IMG/VR virus record: IMGVR_UViG_3300045988_062793
Strand: one strand, 5' to 3'
DNA length: 64,000 nt
Source of the DNA: a virus
Shown here in pieces: positions 8,404 to 59,602 of the stretch. The position numbers were made by a program, and so were the translations under genes. The notes beneath the pieces were generated by a model. The model saw nothing but the letters and a program-made list of their open reading frames with translations, was not told where the DNA came from and ran no database searches. How positions within the stretch are numbered: position 1 is the stretch's first letter; each line of letters opens with the position of its first letter.

Positions 8404-8832
8404 ATGGACAGAAAATTAAGAAGAGAGCTTTCTAAAAGAAAGTGGATTTCTAGAGCTAAAAAAGTTTATAACTCTTGCGGGAAGTTCTATATCCCGGTAA
8501 ACGGAATTAAAGCCAGTGTTCAGTATAATGTTCCTATTTTCAGAAATAGAGCACTGAGAATTTGTGAATCAATTACGGATTTTCTTAATGATTCCAAGTA
8601 TGCCAAAATGCTTAAGAATTGCACTTCTCCCTACAGAAGTAAGATGATGCAGTACGAATATAAGAAAGAGAATAGAAAAGATAGATATAAGGCTAAGAAA
8701 GATATCCAGGAAGGTATTCAGGAATATGAGTCCAGGGACAATCTTTCATGCTCATCATGTATATTCTATGATGGAGGTCTATGCGAGAAAGGATTATTAA
8801 CGACAGATGATTGTCCAGAATATTGGGATTAA
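8404..8832 (+). CDS. Hypothetical Cys-containing protein (142 aa)
   Basis: ORF track 8173..8832 trimmed to the first ATG downstream of the tRNA. Confidence 0.45.
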   Translation: MDRKLRRELSKRKWISRAKKVYNSCGKFYIPVNGIKASVQYNVPIFRNRALRICESITDFLNDSKYAKMLKNCTSPYRSKMMQYEYKKENRKDRYKAKKDIQEGIQEYESRDNLSCSSCIFYDGGLCEKGLLTTDDCPEYWD

Positions 8833-8834
8833 TT

Positions 8835-9194
8835 ATGGATAAATATATTAATGGAAATCTAATAAAGAGGATACTAGTTTTTAAAACTAGAAAACATCCA
8901 GAATGGAAGCATAGAATAGCAGATACTAAATTCTTATTCTGGAAAAAACATATTGACTATTGGTATCTTCTAGACCCATGCTTTGGGACTTACTCTGAGA
9001 AAGGGATGCTCGAATCAATTAGTAAGAGAACGTCCTTCTACAAGGATGGAATAGTATACCAGAAGCCGCATATTATTCTAGAGTTCTCTGAGAGACATGA
9101 TGAGTCTATCTATTTTGATAGTGATGAGGAAATGGAAGGCTGGCTTGAGTCTTTCAGGCAAGAATTTGGAAAACCATTTATGTATATAGAATAA
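8835..9194 (+). CDS. Hypothetical protein (about 119 aa)
   Basis: ORF track 8811..9194, first ATG at 8835. Confidence 0.45.
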   Translation: MDKYINGNLIKRILVFKTRKHPEWKHRIADTKFLFWKKHIDYWYLLDPCFGTYSEKGMLESISKRTSFYKDGIVYQKPHIILEFSERHDESIYFDSDEEMEGWLESFRQEFGKPFMYIE

Positions 9195-9315
9195 TACCTT
9201 TATCCCAGTTTAGAGCTTAGCTCAAGTAGTGAAGAACAGTAGCTATTGGTTAAAACGAGGTGGAGTGCCAGACGAAAGACTGGAATTAACATAGTTTAAC
9301 TTTGAATCTCCGACT

Positions 9316-9657
9316 ATGCGGAGTATCATTATGGCAGAATTGATTTTCTTACCTAATGGAAAATGCGATTTGAAATTTCATGCTAACATCAAAAACTTTA
9401 AAAGAGTTGAGATTGTGAAGCATAAGAAGAACTTCTTCAGGGTCTATGTAGACCGCAACGATAGCGTTTATGACGTGAAACGGTGCGAAGTCATCACTTG
9501 GAAGACCATAGAGAGAGGGAAAAGAAAGGTGAATGTTCCTGACAAGGTTGACGAGGTACGTGATGTACATCTGTTTGACAAGACTAAGGGAAATCCGTTC
9601 AAGATTGCGGTTACTAAAATAATCGGCGAGATTGAGGCACAGGAATTACTATCTTAA
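9316..9657 (+). CDS. Hypothetical protein (113 aa)
   Basis: ORF track. Confidence 0.45.
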   Translation: MRSIIMAELIFLPNGKCDLKFHANIKNFKRVEIVKHKKNFFRVYVDRNDSVYDVKRCEVITWKTIERGKRKVNVPDKVDEVRDVHLFDKTKGNPFKIAVTKIIGEIEAQELLS

Positions 9658-9667
9658 GATAGCGTTT

Positions 9668-9690
9668 AGGAGAGTATCGTATAACTCTCC
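9668..9690 (+). terminator. Hairpin ggagagt (atcgtata) actctcc followed by ttat; terminator-like
   Basis: 7-bp perfect inverted repeat 10 nt after the stop codon. Confidence 0.4.
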
Positions 9691-9694
9691 TTAT

Positions 9695-9769
9695 GCAGAT
9701 GTGGTGTTAATGGTTTGAGCACGTCAGACTTCCAATCTGAAGGGGAGAGTTCGAGTCTCTCTATCTGCA
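9695..9769 (+). tRNA. tRNA-Gly (anticodon TCC)
   Basis: Acceptor gcagatg/atctgc, anticodon stem tcaga/tctga with loop cttccaa, T-arm gagag ttcgagt ctctc. Confidence 0.75.
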
Positions 9770-9774
9770 CATTT

Positions 9775-9846
9775 GTAGGTATAGCACAACGGTTAGTGCA
9801 TCGGCTTGCCATGCCGAGGATGTGAGTTCGATTCTCATTACCTACT
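9775..9846 (+). tRNA. tRNA-Gly (anticodon GCC)
   Basis: Acceptor gtaggta/tacctac, anticodon stem tcggc/gccga with loop ttgccat, T-arm gtgag ttcgatt ctcat. Confidence 0.75.
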
Positions 9847-9861
9847 CAAAATTTAAGTTTT

Positions 9862-10164
9862 ATGAAAATAAAGTGTACAGTATGTAATAAAGAATTTTAT
9901 TATGGAGACCATAACTCTCCAATGTTTATTGATGAGGTTTGGAACAAGATAATAAATTACTTTAAGCTAACCAATTTTGAAAAAGAAGCTGCAAAGAAAT
10001 TCTCCTCTTATTACAAAGGGGGAGGTAAAGATTATTATCCAGACCACCATGTGTTTATCTGTAGCGAATGTGCGGAGAAGGCTCTAGGTAGGGAAATAAC
10101 TGATAAGGATATTAATGATTCATTATTTAATATCCCATTTAGAGAGAAGTACTTTAAATCTTAA
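9862..10164 (+). CDS. Small Cys-containing (zinc-finger-like) hypothetical protein
   Basis: CTVCNKEF...CSEC motifs. Confidence 0.45.
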   Translation: MKIKCTVCNKEFYYGDHNSPMFIDEVWNKIINYFKLTNFEKEAAKKFSSYYKGGGKDYYPDHHVFICSECAEKALGREITDKDINDSLFNIPFREKYFKS

Positions 10165-10165
10165 T

Positions 10166-10250
10166 ATCCGTGTGGGTGAATGGTTTAGCCATCAGTCTGC
10201 AAAACTGAAAAGAGAAATCTTTAATGAGGGTTCGAATCCCTCCACGGATT
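10166..10250 (+). tRNA. Class II tRNA (long variable arm, 3-bp D-stem, Ser-like architecture) carrying a Cys-type anticodon GCA
   Basis: Acceptor atccgtg/cacggat, anticodon stem tcagt/actga with loop ctgcaaa, roughly 18-nt variable arm, T-arm gaggg ttcgaat ccctc; 85 nt in total. Confidence 0.5.
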
Positions 10251-10270
10251 CTAATTTTAAATTTAAAAAT

Positions 10271-10906
10271 ATGGCATATATTTATTGCATTACAAATTTA
10301 ATTAATAGCAAGCGATACGTAGGAAAAACTACTACTTCTATAGAAGAGCGCTGGAAGGAACATTGTTATGACTTTTAGAAAGAAAGATGCAACAAAAGAC
10401 CTTTATATGATGCCATGAATAAGTATGGTGTTGAGAACTTTATGATAGAGGAATTGGAATATGTAGATAGTAACTCTGAATTATCTGAAAGAGAAATCTA
10501 TTGGATAAAAGAGCTAGGAACTTATGGTTCTAATGGGTACAATGCCTCTAAAGGAGGAGATGGCACTATTCTATACAATCATAGTGAAATTGTAGAATTA
10601 GCTAGATTGGGATATACTAGTTCTTAGATACAAGAAAAAATAGGGTGCTGTAAAGACACTATTTACAAAGTTTTGAAGGCAAATAATATAAAAATTAGAA
10701 AAAGTAACGCAAAGTTAATTGCTTAGTATGACTTAGCAGGTAATTTTATACAGGTATTCTTTGGTTCCAGAGAAGCTTAGGAATGGTTAATTAATAACGG
10801 AATTACTGACAATAAATCTGCATAGAGTCATATTATAGGATGCTGTAAGAATAAAACCAAATCATAGTATGGCTATATTTGGAAATATCTTCCAGAGCCT
10901 ATTTAA
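10271..10906 (+). CDS. GIY-YIG homing endonuclease gene (N-terminal GIY-YIG domain, C-terminal HTH / GxIWKY-type DNA-binding region); single frame interrupted by 6 in-frame TAG codons and ending in TAA
   Basis: MAYIYCITNLINSKRYVGKT...RWKEH and ...RPLYDAMNKYGVENF...YWIKELGT...GYN...GG are GIY-YIG signatures; C-terminal ELARLGYTSS[TAG]IQEKIGCCKDTIYKVLK is a classic HTH. TAGs sit at 10376, 10625, 10724, 10778, 10823 and 10865; no TAA or TGA in frame until 10904. The ORF track splits it into 10115..10378 and 10415..10627. Confidence 0.7.
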
Positions 10907-11052
10907 TCTTTAAATCACTGTTTCGACATTTTCAGTCTAAATGCCGTGTCTGGAGACGTTACCAACCAGTCGTGCTATACGGTTAGAATAGTCCGTGCCT
11001 CACTGGTGATAGAGGCATCCCTGGGTAGCGGATGTAAAGTAGCTGCCAATAT

Positions 11053-11130
11053 CGTGGAGTAGAGAAGTGGTCATCTCGCTAGGCTCATAACCTAGAAATC
11101 GTCATAAACGGTTCGAATCCTACCTCCGCA
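11053..11130 (+). tRNA. tRNA-like element with CAT anticodon arm (Met/Ile-type) but non-canonical T-arm and acceptor; possible pseudo-tRNA
   Basis: Good 5' acceptor strand cgtggag, TA, D-arm gaga agtggtca tctc, anticodon arm ctagg ctcataa cctag; the downstream ttcgaat T-loop is out of register and the 3' strand ctccgca does not pair with the 5' strand. Confidence 0.3.
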
Positions 11131-11375
11131 ACGAAACTCCTTTTGTGGCTCTGAATTAGATTAATTATTAACAATTTTAAACTTTGATGTTATGAAGAAA
11201 GTAATTAATGTTGTGAAGAAAGCTGCTAAGTGGTATTTTGAACAGAGTTCTAAGAGCTATACATGGTTAGTTTCTGGAACTATTCCGCCTCCTTATAGAG
11301 GTCTAGAGTAAAGATACTACTAAAAGGTAAGTACCAAAGGGGTACTTATCTACACCCGTGGAGAAAATTAACTAT

Positions 11376-11447
11376 TGGGGTATAGTTCAAAGGTCAGAAC
11401 TTTTGACTGTTAATCAAAGAATCATGGTTCGAGTCCATGTGCCCCAG
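11376..11447 (+). tRNA. tRNA-Asn (anticodon GTT)
   Basis: Acceptor tggggta/tgcccca, D-arm gttc aaaggtca gaac, anticodon stem tttga/tcaaa with loop ctgttaa, T-arm catgg ttcgagt ccatg. Confidence 0.8.
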
Positions 11448-11977
11448 CTATTGACCTTATATTAGATTATGCATCAGTGTGATTATTGTTGTTGGTACTA
11501 CAGTGGAAATTGTGATTGTCCATATGTAATGAAGAAACAAGCGTGTGAAAATGCTTTGAAAACTAAAGAGAGAAATGAAAGACCTATTAGAAAAGTACAA
11601 AATGTTTCAAACTCCAAAACTAGCTAATGAGATTTCATGGAAAGACATGAAGGAATTTAACTCTTATATGAAAGAAGTAGTTCGTGATTATAAGATTAAA
11701 CAGGCTAAATCAATTTAGAGTGCTAGAAACGTAATAATATCCTGACCTGGCAAGGTAAAAATCCATTCGGGGTTTAAGTTGAAGCCAGTCCCTGCGGAAT
11801 CATAAAGACCTTTTCTGATACGATAGTCGATGAACTGAGAGAGTAGTATGGTTGCGGACTTATGCTACTAGAACATGATTCAAACAAAAAAAAACTTATC
11901 TGGTGTTGTTAAGTTGTGGAATCTTAACAGTGGAAATTTATGGGTATGTCACCAATTAAAAAGAAAATCCCAAAAAT

Positions 11978-12050
11978 GGGCCGTTAGCTCAAATGGCTAG
12001 AGCGCTGGTTTTGCACACCGGAAGATAGGGTTCGAGTCCCTGCGTGTCCA
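11978..12050 (+). tRNA. tRNA-Ala (anticodon TGC) candidate with poorly paired acceptor stem (possibly nonfunctional)
   Basis: Canonical D-arm gctc aaatggcta gagc, anticodon stem ctggt/accgg with loop tttgcac, T-arm taggg ttcgagt ccctg; acceptor strands gggccgt and cgtgtcc pair at only 4 of 7 positions. Confidence 0.45.
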
Positions 12051-12258
12051 CAAACTTTATTTAAAAAATTATGAAAGTATATGTAGTTGTAGTAAATTAT
12101 CACCAGCTAATGCTCCTCAAAATTATGAAACTGATTGCCAAATCTTCTTAGACAAGAAACAGGCAGAGAAGTATAAAGAGGCTAAGGAAAAAGAGTTTCC
12201 TATTAGATGGGGAGGAGAGTATAATCATTGTAAACTAATTAAAAAGCATTTGTAATAT

Positions 12259-12331
12259 CGCGGGATGATAGCAGAGGTAGCTAGTCAGGCTCATAACCTG
12301 AAGGTCGTCGGTTCGAATCCGACTCCCGCTA
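12259..12331 (+). tRNA. tRNA-Met (anticodon CAT); position 1-72 mismatch and an extra nucleotide before the D-stem
   Basis: Anticodon stem tcagg/cctga with loop ctcataa, D-arm tagc agaggta gcta, T-arm gtcgg ttcgaat ccgac, acceptor cgcggga/tcccgct. Confidence 0.6.
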
Positions 12332-12362
12332 CTAAGTTATTTTTAACAATTAAAATTAGATT

Positions 12363-12788
12363 ATGGATTTCAAGAATCTTACAAAGGAATCTCTTCCGAA
12401 AGAATTTCAGGAGAGAATTGAGCGTTTCAATCGTTTATTCATTGAAGCTGGTGATGGTACATTTGAAGAAAATGACCTATTTGGTTATGAAATGGGTTGT
12501 ATAAAGCAAGCCTTATCGTTTACCGAGTTTTTCAAAGAAATGAGTCTAGAGGAATGTAAAGCCTTCTATGAGAAATATCCTAGCTTATTTGAGCTGATTG
12601 AGGCTATCAAAGACAAACTTCCGTACTTTGATAATGGTCATAGTGGAAACTCTATGAGCATGAGTTGGATGCTATACAGGTGTTATAAGGAGAAACCCGA
12701 ACTTGTTCCTTATATGCACGGTTGTTTAGCCCAACTTGTTGGGGACGAGGGCTATCATGATAACCGTTCTGATGTTCCAAAACTATGA
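12363..12788 (+). CDS. Hypothetical protein (141 aa)
   Basis: ORF track; ATG preceded by aaaattagattatg motif. Confidence 0.5.
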   Translation: MDFKNLTKESLPKEFQERIERFNRLFIEAGDGTFEENDLFGYEMGCIKQALSFTEFFKEMSLEECKAFYEKYPSLFELIEAIKDKLPYFDNGHSGNSMSMSWMLYRCYKEKPELVPYMHGCLAQLVGDEGYHDNRSDVPKL

Positions 12789-13078
12789 GTGTAATACAAC
12801 AAGTTTATTTAGCTGAAGCTGGTTATTCTATTTACATAAAGGGAATTAAACCAGATAAGGATAATGAATGTTCTGGTGAGATTACTATAAATGGTAATCC
12901 CACTAGATTAGAGAGAAAAGAACGCTATCATATTGATGGCAGTATGCTTGTAACTGACAATTACCACATTCCTATGGACTTTATAATTAATTTTCTACAG
13001 GCCAATGGTTGTATAGAACAGAAGGATGGTAAGATGTATGTTGTATTAAAGGAAGTAGAATTTAAGCTTAATAAATAA
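12785..13078 (+). CDS. Hypothetical protein (97 aa)
   Basis: ORF track; start overlaps the upstream stop (ATGA). Confidence 0.45.
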   Translation: MSVIQQVYLAEAGYSIYIKGIKPDKDNECSGEITINGNPTRLERKERYHIDGSMLVTDNYHIPMDFIINFLQANGCIEQKDGKMYVVLKEVEFKLNK

Positions 13079-13656
13079 TGTTGTCAATTCTATACAACGA
13101 ATACAAAGAATGGGGATGCCCAAACTGTGGCTGTGATTCGGCTATTAGTGGTTGTTTCTCTGGTGGAGGAGTTACTACTGGGACTTGCAGGCATTGTAAG
13201 TTAACCTTTGAAATAAGGAGCGACAATGGAATAGGCACAGTGCGATATGGCTCTCATCCAGAAAATCCATCAGACCCTAAATCTGAATACGTAATGGAAT
13301 ATGCTCGCCGGATTCCTCATCCAAGGTCTGGTATTCCAGCCTGGCATTGGGAACCAAAGGATGTTCGTCCAGATGAAGGAGAGTATTGGAGTTCGAGAGG
13401 AGTTGGATATGATTTATCTGGATTCGTAAAAACTAAAGCTGCTGGTGAACGTATATTAGCTATGGTGCATGAGGTTTTGGGAACTGATAAGTGTGAGACT
13501 TATTTAGACTATAGACCTAGTGAACCAACTTGGATTCAATTTAAGTTCCAGTCTAGCGAGTTTGACTTAGAAAAGTTGGATAAGCTATCTAGAGAAGCTG
13601 ATAGAGTAGTTACTAAGGAAATATTAAAACAGTGTTTACATGGCAAAAGTAATTAA
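13078..13656 (+). CDS. Hypothetical protein with N-terminal Cys-rich zinc-ribbon-like motif (192 aa)
   Basis: CPNCGCDS...CRHC motifs. Confidence 0.5.
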   Translation: MLSILYNEYKEWGCPNCGCDSAISGCFSGGGVTTGTCRHCKLTFEIRSDNGIGTVRYGSHPENPSDPKSEYVMEYARRIPHPRSGIPAWHWEPKDVRPDEGEYWSSRGVGYDLSGFVKTKAAGERILAMVHEVLGTDKCETYLDYRPSEPTWIQFKFQSSEFDLEKLDKLSREADRVVTKEILKQCLHGKSN

Positions 13657-13897
13657 TAAGACAATCACAACACATCTTACAAATATGAAAGATGGAGATG
13701 TAGCTGAGATTGTAAATTGGTTCTGTGACGAGGAAATGGAGCCTGGAACTATAGTTCAGAGGTACGGAGATGCTTTAATTATCATTGGTGGGCGTAGCGG
13801 TCTATGCTATCCTAAGCTGTTTACTGTTGAGGATACGCGTCGTTTGCTTACTTGTAAGGTCACAATTTTGCCTCCTGGCTCAACTATAATGCTATAA
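13640..13897 (+). CDS. Hypothetical protein (85 aa)
   Basis: ORF track. Confidence 0.45.
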   Translation: MAKVINKTITTHLTNMKDGDVAEIVNWFCDEEMEPGTIVQRYGDALIIIGGRSGLCYPKLFTVEDTRRLLTCKVTILPPGSTIML

Positions 13898-14331
13898 TTT
13901 CTTTTCTCCAGTTTTCTAATCAGAGATAAACTGGAACATGGGCCTACTTGGATTTGACAGGCGATTACGAATTATAAGGACGTGTAGAGCGCAATCTCTT
14001 TAAACGAAGAAAACAAATAACTGCAGAAATTGCACCTGTAAGAATGGCAGCCTAAGCTGCTGACTTATTAATAGACAATATTAATCAAGTCGGGTTAATG
14101 GGGAGACCTAGAAACAGAAGAGGTTTGTATCTAAGTGTTATAACGAGACCTTCGGGGAAGAATCATAGTACCTACAGGTTACAGTGAAGCTTAGATGCAT
14201 TAACTTGAAAGCCAAAGGTTAGTAGAGCTGAAATCTCCACTGCCTATCTATGGGCTACAAATAGACGTTCTCCAACGTAAATGGGGTGGTGGAAGAATGA
14301 CTTCTAGTCAGCCCCCAGTCTCGGCATTTAT
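13898..14331 (+). ncRNA. About 430-nt noncoding, relatively GC-rich, probably structured RNA region of unknown class, directly upstream of tRNA-Thr
   Basis: No ORF over 30 codons in any + frame even allowing TAG read-through; local GC content above its surroundings; several stable hairpins including a cc(ttcg)gg UUCG-type tetraloop. Confidence 0.3.
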
Positions 14332-14404
14332 TCCCCTGTAGTTTAGTTGGTTAGAACACGTGATTTGTAATCTCGAGACCTCGGTTCGAATCCGAGTGGG
14401 GGAT
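14332..14404 (+). tRNA. tRNA-Thr (anticodon TGT)
   Basis: Acceptor tcccctg/tggggga with G-U pairs, D-arm gttt agttggtta gaac, anticodon loop tttgtaa (stem has one T-T mismatch), T-arm ctcgg ttcgaat ccgag. Confidence 0.6.
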
Positions 14405-14431
14405 CTTAACCATTAAATTAGATTAATTTTT

Positions 14432-15106
14432 ATGACTAGATTGGAAAAGTATTTAGTAGCAACTGCTACTGAGATTATCGAAGCGGAAACAACTGTTTCT
14501 CGCTACTTTGTCATTGGAAACGTCAAAGTTAGAGTATCAGACCATTTAAGTAAAATGAGTGATGCAGACTTACAAGTGATTATTCCATTGAACGGAGGGA
14601 CTAAGTATATAGTTACTGTTAAAGATAGTCCTGGAAAATTTCTTGTGTGGAATGCAACTCAAATAAAAGACTTTATTCCTTCATTGCAGATTATTAAGGG
14701 CTTGAAGGAAGGAGTGCAACTTAAGCCAAAACCTAAAGACTCTGCAGTTCAGAAGATTCAGCTAGCATTAAATAATAGTAATACCGATGGAGGTTCGTTA
14801 ACGTTTGATGGTACTATTATTGAGTCTAGATTGAAAGAAAAGCAACTTACTTCCAAACAGCGGGAAGTTTTCAGGAGAACTAAATCTACTTGGGACATTT
14901 CTCAGATTGGAACATTACCCAGTATGATTAAAGTAGATTTGGGATTGTCAAATGGTTCTGTAAACGAAGATGTGCAGATATTTCTAACTTGTACATCTTT
15001 AACCTACAAAGAAATTCTGAACATTTATAAAATAATAGTTGTTGATAACCGTATGGTTCCAACTATTAAACTGTTGCAAGAAGCTTATAGCTTGATTGTG
15101 CAGTAG
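14432..15106 (+). CDS. Hypothetical protein (224 aa); the only well-supported gene in the window ending in TAG
   Basis: ORF track; stop TAG at 15104-15106, 3 nt before tRNA-Glu. Confidence 0.5.
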   Translation: MTRLEKYLVATATEIIEAETTVSRYFVIGNVKVRVSDHLSKMSDADLQVIIPLNGGTKYIVTVKDSPGKFLVWNATQIKDFIPSLQIIKGLKEGVQLKPKPKDSAVQKIQLALNNSNTDGGSLTFDGTIIESRLKEKQLTSKQREVFRRTKSTWDISQIGTLPSMIKVDLGLSNGSVNEDVQIFLTCTSLTYKEILNIYKIIVVDNRMVPTIKLLQEAYSLIVQ

Positions 15107-15109
15107 GAT

Positions 15110-15181
15110 AGCGCCATCATCTAAGGGTTAGGATTCAGGCTTTTCACGCCTGCCATACGGGTTCGAATCCCGTTGGCGTTA
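15110..15181 (+). tRNA. tRNA-Glu (anticodon TTC)
   Basis: Acceptor agcgcca/tggcgtt, anticodon stem caggc/gcctg with loop ttttcac, T-arm acggg ttcgaat cccgt. Confidence 0.7.
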
Positions 15182-15186
15182 CTATG

Positions 15187-42230: not shown

Positions 42231-42552
42231 AAAATTGTCAGCAATTTATAGCAAATACTTTACCTTAAATTACCTAAATAGCAATATGGGAGATAAACTA
42301 GCTTGTATTGCTCTCACTTGTTATATAACTAATGAGTTAAGGAAAAAAGGTCAAAAAGTAACTTGTTATGATGTTCTCCTAAAAGTAGGTAACGACTTTG
42401 GGGAGGTGGAAAAAAATACCTTCCTGAAGTCCCTAGGGGCCATTTGCGAGGATTTAATGTATGGGTGTAATACTTTCCTTGACTTTGGAATAAAGCCCAA
42501 GGATATGCCCAAACAACTCAAAATTTTGCTAGACAATTATGTACCATTTTAA
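42202..42552 (+). CDS. Hypothetical protein (116 aa)
   Basis: ORF track. Confidence 0.4.
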   Translation: MNDLQNISFEKLSAIYSKYFTLNYLNSNMGDKLACIALTCYITNELRKKGQKVTCYDVLLKVGNDFGEVEKNTFLKSLGAICEDLMYGCNTFLDFGIKPKDMPKQLKILLDNYVPF

Positions 42553-42566
42553 TGTTAAAAATTTTT

Positions 42567-43028
42567 ATGATATATCTATTAAGAAACAACAACTTTTTGA
42601 AGATAGGCTTCGCTAAAGATGTCTAGAGGAGAATGAAGTGCTATAATACCTGCGCCTTTGGATATCAATTGTTAGATGTAAGGGATGGAGATAAACAGGT
42701 AGAAAAGCTACTCCATAAGATGTTTAGAAAATACTAGGTAGCTAAGGAATGGTTTGAAGATAACAACTATATTATCTTACACTTTCATGATAGTGTAGAG
42801 AGACTAGTAGAATAGTCTCAAAATATTGCCAAGTAGAGAAAATACATCAGAGTCTGGACCTCAAGGGGCATATTCTATAAGGATTACGATTCCATATAGG
42901 AATGTTCATAGAGTTTAGGTTTTCCGATATAGGATATAAAGAATGCTTTAACTAATAAAAAGACAAAAGTCGGAAATTTTATTATTTAGCATAAGGTGTG
43001 TGACTAGGGTCAATTTAACACCCTTTAA
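42567..43028 (+). CDS. T5orf172/GIY-YIG-superfamily endonuclease-like gene interrupted by 9 in-frame TAG codons (the only stops in the frame before the terminal TAA)
   Basis: Translation MIYLLRNNNFLKIGFAKDV[*]RRMKCYNT...YQLLDVRDGDKQVEKLLHKMFRKY[*]VAKEWFEDNNYIILHFHDSVERLVE[*]SQNIAK[*]RKYIRVWTSRGIFYKDYDSI[*]ECS[*]SLGFPI[*]DIKNALTNKKTKVGNFII[*]HKVCD[*]GQFNTL; N-terminus fits the GIY/KIG...R motif. The region otherwise appears as a 620-nt noncoding gap. Confidence 0.55.
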
Positions 43029-54877: not shown

Positions 54878-56245
54878 ATGAAGTTATCTAAGAGTAAAAG
54901 AGCCAATGTAAATTATTTGGCGAAGATTGTAGACATTAAAAATTTCAGAGCGCATAGTAATCCAGAAGTTACTAGACTTAAGTGTTGTACCATTGATGGT
55001 TTCAATATCATTACTGGGATTGATTCTCAGCCAGGACTATATGTATATTTTCCAACGGCTTGTTGTATAAATCCAGATTTTCTGAGATATTGTAATCTTT
55101 ATCGTCATAAAGAATTAAACAATGACCCAGAACAAACTGGTATGTTTGAGGATAATGGTAGAGTAAAAGCTATCAGATTAAAGAATGAGCTGTCTGAAGG
55201 TTTTATTCTTCCAGTAGTCCAGTTTCAGAACTATATAATGTCTGTGACTAATAAGGAGATTGAAGTTGAAGAAGGTATTGAATTTGATATTGTAGAACAT
55301 GAAGGCAAAGAATTTTGGATTAACAAAAAGTACATTCCCAAGAGACAACAGGGACAAGGGGGAACTCCACGTAACAACCAAACGAAGAAAGTCAAAGGAA
55401 TCAGCAAGGTTATTGATGAACAGTTTAGATTCCACTACGACACAACTCTTATTAAGAAATGTCCTAATGTAATTCATCCTAATGACTTAATTAGTATTAC
55501 TGAGAAAATACATGGTACTTCTGGTATTTCAGCATATGTTTTGTGTAAGCAAGACCTAGATTGGAAACAGAAGATTGCTAAATGGTTGACAGGAGAAGAG
55601 TTTAATAAGTATGACTATCTCTATGCCTCTAGAACTGTAATTAAGAATCAGTTCTATAACAAAAATGTTACTCCAGGATTCTACGGATGTGATGTTTGGG
55701 CAGAGGCTGATAAAATAGTAAAGCCTTGTTTGTCTAAAGGCATGACAGCATATTATGAGATAGTAGGATTCTTACCGAATGGTGGTTATATCCAAAAGAA
55801 CTATGATTATGGATGTATGCCTCCTAAAGAAGGAGAAGCATATACTCCAGAGAAACACTTTAAGGTTCGTATCTATCGAGTAACTATAACTAATGTTGAT
55901 GGAGTTGTTCACGAGTTTTCTGCTCGTGAAGTTCAACAATGGTGTGCCAAGGTTGGGCTTACCCCAGTGGAAGAATGGTATTATGGAACTGCAAAAGCTC
56001 TATATCCAGAACTTAATGAGTCTGAACATTGGAACGAAAACTTTATGGAGAAGTTAGCAAATGATACTCAGTTCTATATGGAACGTACTTCTCCGTCTTG
56101 CGATAATAAAGTACCTCATGAGGGTATTGTTATCAAAATAGAGAATATGAAATCAGAGGCTTTCAAATTGAAATGCTTTAAATTCCTGGATAAAGAAGGA
56201 AAGGAGTTAGATAAGGGAGAGTCTAATATTGAGGATGAAAATTAA
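54878..56245 (+). CDS. ATP-dependent RNA ligase, Rnl2-like nucleotidyltransferase
   Basis: Motif I TEKIHGTSG (KxHG), motif IV HEGIVIKIE (EGxVxK), motif V-like FKLKCFKF; 455 aa. Confidence 0.6.
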   Translation: MKLSKSKRANVNYLAKIVDIKNFRAHSNPEVTRLKCCTIDGFNIITGIDSQPGLYVYFPTACCINPDFLRYCNLYRHKELNNDPEQTGMFEDNGRVKAIRLKNELSEGFILPVVQFQNYIMSVTNKEIEVEEGIEFDIVEHEGKEFWINKKYIPKRQQGQGGTPRNNQTKKVKGISKVIDEQFRFHYDTTLIKKCPNVIHPNDLISITEKIHGTSGISAYVLCKQDLDWKQKIAKWLTGEEFNKYDYLYASRTVIKNQFYNKNVTPGFYGCDVWAEADKIVKPCLSKGMTAYYEIVGFLPNGGYIQKNYDYGCMPPKEGEAYTPEKHFKVRIYRVTITNVDGVVHEFSAREVQQWCAKVGLTPVEEWYYGTAKALYPELNESEHWNENFMEKLANDTQFYMERTSPSCDNKVPHEGIVIKIENMKSEAFKLKCFKFLDKEGKELDKGESNIEDEN

Positions 56246-58198: not shown

Positions 58199-58441
58199 AT
58201 GGAACAAGCTGTATTTCAGAGAATGTTGGGAGAATTTAATGAAGTCAATGAACGTGCTAACAAACTTAGAGAATTTATTTTGAGCGATAAGAGCAAAGAA
58301 GTAGATAATCTGAATCGTGATTTGTTAATTGCCCAACTAAAAGCAATGGAAGCATATGTATCTGTACTATCAATTCGTATAGGACTTAATGCTCCGAAAG
58401 ATGAAATTTCAGAGGCCAAGGTTGTGAAAGAAGGTGAGTAA
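58199..58441 (+). CDS. Hypothetical protein (80 aa)
   Basis: ORF track. Confidence 0.4.
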   Translation: MEQAVFQRMLGEFNEVNERANKLREFILSDKSKEVDNLNRDLLIAQLKAMEAYVSVLSIRIGLNAPKDEISEAKVVKEGE

Positions 58442-59279
58442 GAAAATCATTTTCACCGACCGCTCGGATTCATTATTGACTAGTTACCTCAAAGATATAT
58501 CCAAATATAAAATATTGGATAGTGATGAGGTAACTCGTCTTATTTGTGAAGCCCAAAAGGGAGATGATGTTGCTAGAGAGCAGGTTATAAAATCTAATTT
58601 AAGATTCGTTGTAACTATTGCTAAGCAATTTCAAAACAGAGGTATTCCTTTGATGGATTTAATCTCTAGTGGAAATGAAGGTTTAATGAAAGCTATTGAT
58701 AAGTTTGACCCAGAAAGAGGTGTCACATTCTTGTCATATGCTGTATGGTGGATTAGACAAAGTATCTATAATTCTATATATTGGCAAGCACGAGAAATTC
58801 GTCTTCCAATGTCTCAGCAATTATTGGTAATAAGTATACTCGATGCAACTAATAAATTCTTGCAATCGCATGATAGAAATCCAAGTTCCGAAGAAATATC
58901 AGAAATGACTGATATTCCTAGGGAGCAAATTGACTATCTAGCACAGTTTTCTAATAAGTTAGTTTCTGTGGACGATTTCATAGGAGGAGATGAAGAAAAC
59001 AGTCAAGTCTGTGATATTATTCCAGATGGTGAAGACCCCCTTGATGAACAAGTAAATAAAAGCTATGTAACTAAAGAGCTAGAGAATCTACTTTCTAAAT
59101 TAACAATTAGAGAGCACGATTTAATCTGTATGTTATTTGGTATAGGAATGGCTCCTGTCAATCCTAAAATTATAGCTGATATGTACGGTGTTGGAGGAGA
59201 AAGAATAAGACAGATGAAAGAGGGAGCTTTAGCTAAATTAAGACGTAGATTTTCTAATCAACTTAAAAATTTAATGTAA
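58434..59279 (+). CDS. RNA polymerase sigma-70 family factor
   Basis: Region 2 DLISSGNEGLMKAIDKFDPERGVTFLSYAVWWIRQSI and region 4 HTH ADMYGVGGERIRQMKEGALAKLRR. Confidence 0.85.
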   Translation: MSKKIIFTDRSDSLLTSYLKDISKYKILDSDEVTRLICEAQKGDDVAREQVIKSNLRFVVTIAKQFQNRGIPLMDLISSGNEGLMKAIDKFDPERGVTFLSYAVWWIRQSIYNSIYWQAREIRLPMSQQLLVISILDATNKFLQSHDRNPSSEEISEMTDIPREQIDYLAQFSNKLVSVDDFIGGDEENSQVCDIIPDGEDPLDEQVNKSYVTKELENLLSKLTIREHDLICMLFGIGMAPVNPKIIADMYGVGGERIRQMKEGALAKLRRRFSNQLKNLM

Positions 59280-59602
59280 TGAAATTCGGAGAAATATTGT
59301 CTAAGTTACAAGAGGGAAAAGTAGTAAGAAGGAAAGTATTTCAGAGCAATCTGGTAATATTTATGCAGATACCTGCAATGATTTCTGGAGATGGAATACC
59401 TGCTATGCGTTCTATCCCTGATGATATGAAAGCTCTTATGTGTAGTTACGGTGTAGGTATTACATACCATGACCAGTTTATCATGTATGACTTTTCTGAT
59501 AGGACTTGTACTTACTATCCTTTTGATGGTGAAGATATAAACGCAGATGATTGGGAAGTAGTTGATCCTTTAACTTATGACCCATATGACGACTTTAGAT
59601 AA
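59279..59602 (+). CDS. Hypothetical protein (107 aa)
   Basis: ORF track. Confidence 0.4.
   Translation: MKFGEILSKLQEGKVVRRKVFQSNLVIFMQIPAMISGDGIPAMRSIPDDMKALMCSYGVGITYHDQFIMYDFSDRTCTYYPFDGEDINADDWEVVDPLTYDPYDDFR

Follow-up and report, generated by a model that had tools for sequence, protein, structure and literature searches.

The Endonuclease Gene and Its Neighbors

The window, by which we mean the whole 64-kb stretch of viral DNA that was analyzed, holds a GIY-YIG endonuclease gene between two tRNA genes. The features at this site are:

10166..10251, + strand: 86-nt tRNA with a long variable arm, a GCA anticodon and U73 (ARAGORN; 56.3 bits to the Rfam tRNA model)
10271..10906, + strand: GIY-YIG endonuclease coding sequence, 211 aa, terminal TAA at 10904-10906; catalytic domain at aa 1-91, weak HTH at aa ~105-138, and a NUMOD1-like tail with the motif YGYIWKY
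11053..11132, + strand: tRNA-Met(CAT), downstream of the endonuclease gene (ARAGORN)

The endonuclease frame has 212 codons, made up of 211 sense positions, the first being ATG, and the terminal TAA. A preliminary description of this DNA had stated that the frame is broken solely by six TAG codons, and translation of the window confirms this. The TAGs start at 10376, 10625, 10724, 10778, 10823, and 10865 (codons 36, 119, 152, 170, 185, and 199), and there is no in-frame TAA, TGA or frameshift across 10271-10906 before the terminal TAA. The identical six TAGs are present in near-identical copies of the gene from independent samples (L001, L002, L027, and L028; handles of this type denote the related metagenome or IMG/VR contigs and loci used for comparison).

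Residues 1-91 match PF01541 (GIY-YIG) with 49.3 bits and an E of 6.2e-13, against a Pfam cutoff of 22.6 bits, and YGYIWKY is indeed a conserved C-terminal motif. The HTH and NUMOD1 matches of the C-terminal half are weak: they have Pfam E values of 0.004-0.016 and lie under the curated cutoffs. The catalytic domain of I-TevI (1mk0) aligns with residues 4-93 (E 1.4e-9), pairing the equivalents of R27 and E75. The catalytic residues of I-TevI are Tyr6, Tyr17, Arg27, His31, Glu75, and Asn90, and their equivalents in the endonuclease (Y5, Y16, R27, H31, E75, and N91) are invariant in an alignment of 25 homologs. These comparisons show an intact frame, whose predicted product belongs to the GIY-YIG superfamily and has catalytic residues of the I-TevI type.

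The long-arm tRNA(GCA) ends 19 nt before the endonuclease ATG, which bears out the earlier statement that the gene lies directly downstream of a class II tRNA with this anticodon. It folds into a canonical 7/5 cloverleaf with a 17-nt variable arm (class II shape). It was considered as a suppressor and rejected, and it has no evident link to TAG decoding. None of the Ser, Leu, Tyr or Cys tRNAs of the phage shares more than 65% identity with it. An ordinary 75-nt tRNA-Cys(GCA) is located at 8310-8384. The long-arm tRNA is kept in the endonuclease-bearing L001, L007, L008, L027, and L036 and is absent from L010.

A group I intron was considered as a home for the endonuclease and was rejected. Rfam detected no intron family over 4900-12400, whether with the gathering threshold or with the limit relaxed to E<=1. 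Both tRNAs that flank the gene are complete, and the 146-nt spacer downstream of it (10907-11052) has no unusual structure (folding z-score 0.12) and no Rfam match. Two further tRNA-like elements of the window were found by Rfam and missed by ARAGORN. One resembles tRNA-Ala(TGC) but has a mismatched acceptor stem (11978-12050, + strand, 39.5 bits). The other is an odd element of tRNA/tmRNA type without a clear D arm (5166-5242, + strand, 30.4 bits).

The Phage and the Mobility of the Gene

The window carries about 98-99 tightly packed genes on the + strand for replication and nucleotide metabolism, including those for DNA polymerase A, helicases, a ligase, NrdD, NAMPT and an RNA ligase, together with 16-18 tRNAs. 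The DNA polymerase A is 45-52% identical to the polymerases of crAss-like phages. Proteins from both ends of the window recur without change on hundreds of contigs from metagenomes, and the largest of these contigs measure 184-186 kb. By gene content, the window is the early or replication block of a ~185 kb crAss-like gut phage. Zeta-group crAss-like phages have genomes of 145-192 kb with an extensive replication machinery and numerous mobile elements, and their late genes are recoded at TAG or TGA (PMC7886860, PMC12386605). The replication and nucleotide-metabolism set seen here (NrdD, Thy1, UDG) agrees with the published description of that group (PMC7886860). Zeta is the most likely assignment on these gene comparisons. 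In the annotated phage collection, the matches were limited to two short fragments (MT837398, MT836281) and to crAss-like phages that are distant relatives.

Some other properties of the phage deserve mention. Pfam matches by position mark two candidate anti-defence proteins, Sequestin (58199-58441, 80 aa) and a Tad2-like protein (59279-59602, 107 aa). There is also an apparent tRNA-repair set, with the RNA ligase in the window (54878-56245) and a CCA-adding/poly(A) polymerase-like protein, PNKP and Thg1 encoded just downstream (L003 10904-15466).

The presence of the endonuclease gene varies between otherwise near-identical strains. L010 has no segment matching window ~10165-14330, and there a 100-aa ORF directly precedes tRNA-Thr. 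This hypervariable segment contains the long-arm tRNA, the endonuclease gene, tRNA-Met, tRNA-Asn, the tRNA-Ala-like sequence, another tRNA-Met and four small ORFs. L036 has a divergent endonuclease allele at the same site. In addition, a paralogous second GIY-YIG gene with 4 in-frame TAGs has been inserted at the 3' end of tRNA-Met in L001 (2864-3581), flanked by a duplicated 16 bp sequence, AATCCTACCTCCGCAA (window 11116-11131). This second paralog is found after tRNA-Met in L001 and L028 and is absent from the window.

A position just downstream of a co-oriented tRNA gene is usual for this endonuclease family. Among 60 homologous IMG/VR loci, 37 have a same-strand tRNA ending at most 250 bp upstream of the endonuclease gene, and the identities of these tRNAs vary. 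The gene of the window is a predicted free-standing, SegB-like homing endonuclease gene in a phage tRNA array, written in code 15.

Comparison of window 8000-14500 with L001, L002, L009, and L027 revealed that the strains are mosaics, in which near-identical stretches are mixed with patches that are 15-25% divergent (e.g., 8200-9200 and 13000-13400). This points to frequent recombination among co-circulating relatives. The endonuclease region is 99.9% identical between the window and L001, and a co-conversion tract was considered as the explanation. However, the near-identical patch spans ~9200-12400, and such patches are everywhere. Because the genomes are mosaics of this kind, the 99.9% identity with L001 is not specific evidence of homing.

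Stop Codon Usage Across the Window

Random decay would be expected to leave more than one type of lesion, and the preliminary description had argued that a frame interrupted only by TAG is unlike it. The argument is borne out by the stop triplets that occur off-frame in the genes of the window. Because TAG accounts for only 894 of the 3568 (25%), the probability that six of six interruptions are TAG by chance is ~2.5e-4. From the same off-frame triplet counts, a 212-codon non-coding frame would lack both TAA and TGA with a probability of ~6e-6.

TAG is also avoided as a terminator. With the standard code, the stop codons of the window are 62 TAA, 32 TGA and 4 TAG. Two of the four TAG stops belong to fragments of the endonuclease gene itself, so TAG terminates at most 2 of the ~98 genes. 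In one of these two, a TAA comes six codons after the TAG:

14432..15124, + strand: core-block gene with TAG at 15104 and TAA six codons after; called in relatives as 230 aa, not 224 aa

The protein would be 224 aa before a code switch and 230 aa after it. The extension past the TAG overlaps tRNA-Glu (15110-15182).

The core genes of the window contain 501 CAA or CAG codons and no in-frame TAG. Real in-frame TAGs are confined to just two genes of the window. One is the GIY-YIG gene, with 6 TAG against 2 CAA/CAG codons, and the other is:

42552..43028, + strand: T5orf172 (GIY-YIG-superfamily) gene, 158 aa, with nine in-frame TAGs against 4 CAA/CAG codons

The T5orf172 protein matches PF10544 in Pfam with 40.4 bits and an E of 4.5e-10 (cutoff 20 bits). 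Its gene occupies what seems to be a non-coding gap in the standard-code ORF map.

Other TAG-rich frames were examined and are not recoded. These are 8866-9657, 5058-5864 and several 5' extensions, each of which either overlaps a real gene or is upstream non-coding sequence. The idea that TAG in the early block is restricted to nuclease genes was also considered, and it is not strictly true. The HNH gene (window 5313-5864) and the LAGLIDADG gene (L005) have no TAG, and a few small non-nuclease genes downstream of the window have 1-3 TAGs each. Recoding is not general to the selfish nuclease genes of this phage.

Amber Suppressors and Recoded Late Genes

If TAG is read as sense in this phage, a tRNA with a CTA anticodon might be expected. 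The 64-kb window itself has no suppressor tRNA, whether sought with ARAGORN, Rfam, BLAST with the two suppressors described below (sup1 and sup2) or an anticodon-loop pattern search. However, contigs that share 96-98% identity with the window carry two tRNAs with a CUA anticodon, located 6-8 kb ahead of the point at which the window starts. This level of identity was found for L006, L008, and L010 over 10 kb. Pairs of tRNA(CTA) genes are present in L007, L008, L010, L018, and L019, and L007 and L008 carry both suppressor tRNAs along with the start of the endonuclease gene.

The closest relative of sup1 in the window is:

4182..4254, + strand: phage tRNA-Gln(UUG)

The two are 71% identical. Their D and T arms are nearly the same, and they have the U1-A72 pair and the discriminator base in common. 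This similarity shows sup1(CUA) to be, as judged by its sequence, a close derivative of the phage tRNA-Gln. In contrast, sup2 is at most 64% identical to any window tRNA. The sup2 anticodon is CTA in some strains and TTA (ochre-type) in others, the loci compared being L014 5952-6022 and L022 5850-5920 (-) against L018 6767-6837 and L007 4222-4292. A UUA anticodon on sup2 would also read TAA, the main terminator of the phage.

A scan for frames that stay open across TAG alone had also been suggested, and such frames are found in the same lineage. No heavily recoded late gene lies within the 64-kb window, and the connection is made through near-identical contigs that come from other samples. In these a recoded gene block is located ~17 kb upstream of the window start. 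The large terminase gene (phrog_6681, E 8e-63) has 16 in-frame TAGs in L014 and 19 in L019, with no TAA or TGA, and in L014 16 of its 25 Gln codons are TAG. Two other genes of L014, of 404 and 188 aa, have 15 and 5 in-frame TAGs. One record, IMGVR_UViG_3300045988_059870, unites a six-TAG endonuclease gene (L028, 99.5% identical to the window), sup1 and the 19-TAG terminase (L019).

What Homologs Carry at the TAG Positions

A protein search returned 982 homologs of the endonuclease. Most of them originate from gut metagenomes, on contigs of up to 218 kb, are ~211 aa long and start with MGYIYCITN. The nearest public gene call, P0001, renders all six TAGs as Q, and its cluster has 267 member sequences. 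Amino acid columns were taken from a 25-protein alignment and codons were tabulated in 83 homologous loci, with the following outcome for each TAG:

10376..10378, + strand: TAG no. 1, codon 36; Gln in 12/25, otherwise K/R/C/N/Y; close homologs have TAG, CAG or CAA
10625..10627, + strand: TAG no. 2, codon 119, in the HTH region; Gln in 20/25; CAG in L029, L034 and L011
10724..10726, + strand: TAG no. 3, codon 152; invariant Gln among the 25; CAA/CAG in 39/83 loci, TAG in 6/83
10778..10780, + strand: TAG no. 4, codon 170; Gln in 7/25, variable (Q/M/A/S...); CAA in L011, TAG in L030
10823..10825, + strand: TAG no. 5, codon 185; variable column (K/S/R...)
10865..10867, + strand: TAG no. 6, codon 199; column mostly Ala or Cys

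The columns at codons 152 and 119 answer the question of whether the TAGs fall at conserved residues, and both point to glutamine. Codons 36, 119, 152, and 170 swap between TAG and CAA/CAG in the close homologs L011, L029, L030, and L031. The column at codon 185 is variable and that at codon 199 is mostly Ala or Cys, so neither identifies the inserted amino acid.

Across the 83 loci, 31 have in-frame TAG only, 3 have TGA only, and 1 has TAGs plus one TGA. An in-frame TAA was found in none of them. The TGA-type homologs (L055, L075, and L086) are IMG/VR loci from other phages, with the gene running from 1501 to ~2140. Nine of their 11 in-frame TGAs fall on conserved Trp columns (4/4 in L055, 2/2 in L075 and 3/5 in L086). 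In L075 a tRNA(TCA) adjoins the endonuclease homolog. L034 has, besides TAGs, a TGA at the nearly invariant Arg43, and this resembles a true lesion. The use of either TAG or TGA, with TGA placed on Trp, suggests that each member of the family is translated via the stop codon that its resident phage has recoded.

The CUA tRNAs, the recoded terminase and the Gln columns all support the proposal in the preliminary description that TAG is read through by a suppressor tRNA or a reassigned code. They show that the six TAGs are sense codons. The amino acid is most likely glutamine, which a phage tRNA(CUA) would insert.

Weighing the Alternatives

Could the gene nevertheless be a pseudogene in decay, with TAG-only lesions by chance? 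Homing endonuclease genes often decay, and the TGA of L034 is the sort of lesion that decay would leave. However, six TAGs out of six are improbable by chance (p ~2.5e-4), frameshifts are absent and the catalytic residues are intact. The same TAGs have been kept in independent samples, not one of 83 loci has an in-frame TAA, and TAG exchanges with CAA or CAG at an invariant Gln column. The lineage moreover has CUA tRNAs and a terminase gene with 16-19 TAGs. Decay is a very improbable explanation, and these comparisons exclude it for practical purposes. What if, instead, the gene is a recent import from another TAG-recoded phage, carried as silent cargo, so that its TAGs mirror only the code of the donor? 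Mobility is high in this family, and each member has the code "dialect" of its resident phage (TAG, TGA or none). The gene also sits in a hypervariable segment that L010 lacks, and the neighboring early genes are without TAG. Nevertheless, its intact catalytic residues are conserved across many samples, as the 267 sequences of the P0001 cluster illustrate. The resident phage is itself TAG-recoded with its own suppressor tRNAs, so the endonuclease gene would be translatable in place. We regard silent carriage as extremely improbable.

A different doubt concerns the amino acid. TAG might be read as something other than Gln, or as a mixture if the second suppressor has a different identity. sup2 does not resemble any window tRNA closely (<=64%), codons 185 and 199 align with K/S/R and A/C, and ARAGORN calls the CUA tRNAs "Pyl". 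However, the Pyl call is based on the anticodon only and no Pyl machinery was seen. sup1 matches the phage tRNA-Gln in both the D and T arms and in having U1-A72, and the invariant Gln152 and the largely conserved Gln119 are TAG here and CAA or CAG in homologs. Gln at TAG has also been proven by proteomics in other crAss-like phages (Peters et al., 2022, PMC9523058). A non-Gln or mixed reading is very improbable. We are highly confident in the reading that this is a crAss-like phage of ~185 kb, for which Zeta is the most likely group, and that in it TAG encodes Gln (code 15) and the endonuclease is intact.

A Possible Lock on Selfish Nucleases

The TAGs would be read as glutamine because the phage lineage encodes amber-suppressor tRNAs, and the timing of their appearance may matter. 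Before the suppressor is present, ribosomes would be expected to halt at codon 36, giving a 35-aa product that has neither the catalytic Glu75 nor the DNA-binding tail. When a Gln-charged tRNA(CUA) becomes available, the full 211-aa nuclease could be made. Because translation without the suppressor would end before Glu75, active nuclease is predicted only after suppression is established.

When might that be? TAG makes up 6/8 of the Gln codons in the endonuclease gene, 16/25 in the terminase gene and 0/~500 in the early neighbors. The endonuclease thus resembles the late genes in this respect and not its own early neighbors, which suggests that its translation has to await the code switch. Late translation is what we infer from codon usage alone.

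The gene itself appears to be a selfish, free-standing element of the T4 SegB type, placed directly behind a tRNA gene. When strains infect a cell together, its nuclease probably cuts the alleles that lack the endonuclease gene, and the gene would then be copied in by repair. Perhaps the recoded stops act as a translational lock on selfish nucleases in the early tRNA array, with the dialect of the family matched to the code of the phage it invades, so that the gene carries a portable expression timer. This is a tentative idea, and one that we would sooner doubt than assert.

Relation to Known Systems and Significance

The endonuclease has a GIY-YIG catalytic domain homologous to that of I-TevI and a C-terminal tail of the HTH/NUMOD type, like the T4 Seg proteins. 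It has tblastn matches annotated as "SegB homing endonuclease", although it is only ~30-34% identical to the annotated SegB-like proteins. The T4 SegB gene lies in the T4 tRNA region. The location in a phage tRNA cluster and the presence/absence polymorphism between strains are shared with SegB. A difference is that translation of the endonuclease here would depend on amber suppression.

The reading of TAG as Gln in late genes has been described for Beta, Delta, and Zeta crAss-like phages (Yutin et al., 2021, PMC7886860), and their suppressor tRNAs and dense mobile endonucleases are also published (PMC7886860, PMC12386605). The phage of the window conforms to code-15 crAss-like phages in its size of 184-186 kb, the large tRNA array that opens its replication block, its tRNA(CUA), its TAG-rich late genes such as that for the terminase, its standard-code-compatible early block and its strain-variable mobile endonuclease genes. 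Nothing essential differs, although the TAG-bearing gene is here inside an otherwise TAG-free early block.

The closest precedent for that arrangement is a group I intron endonuclease within an early gene of the TGA-recoded Agate phages, which is preferentially recoded (Borges et al., bioRxiv 10.1101/2021.08.26.457843). The same authors proposed that recoded stops hold nuclease production until late infection. Both cases concern a homing endonuclease in early DNA that prefers the recoded stop. However, the Agate gene lies in an intron and uses TGA as Trp, whereas the gene described here is free-standing behind a tRNA in a crAss-like phage and uses TAG as Gln. Since recoding in crAss-like phages and the delayed-endonuclease idea have both been published, the finding is a known phenomenon, read correctly. 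What novelty remains is minor. It consists of a GIY-YIG family of tRNA arrays in which stop codon usage tracks the code of the resident phage.

The result opens no new question and is mainly of value for annotation. Annotation with the standard code would shatter the late genes, and it would present the endonuclease gene and the T5orf172 gene (42552-43028) as pseudogenes or fragments. The phage also provides a worked example of mixed coding in one genome, with a TAG-free early block and late genes in which about two thirds of the Gln codons are TAG. Mobile nuclease genes within the early block use the coding of the late genes, and this fits the published proposal that recoding sets when proteins are made.
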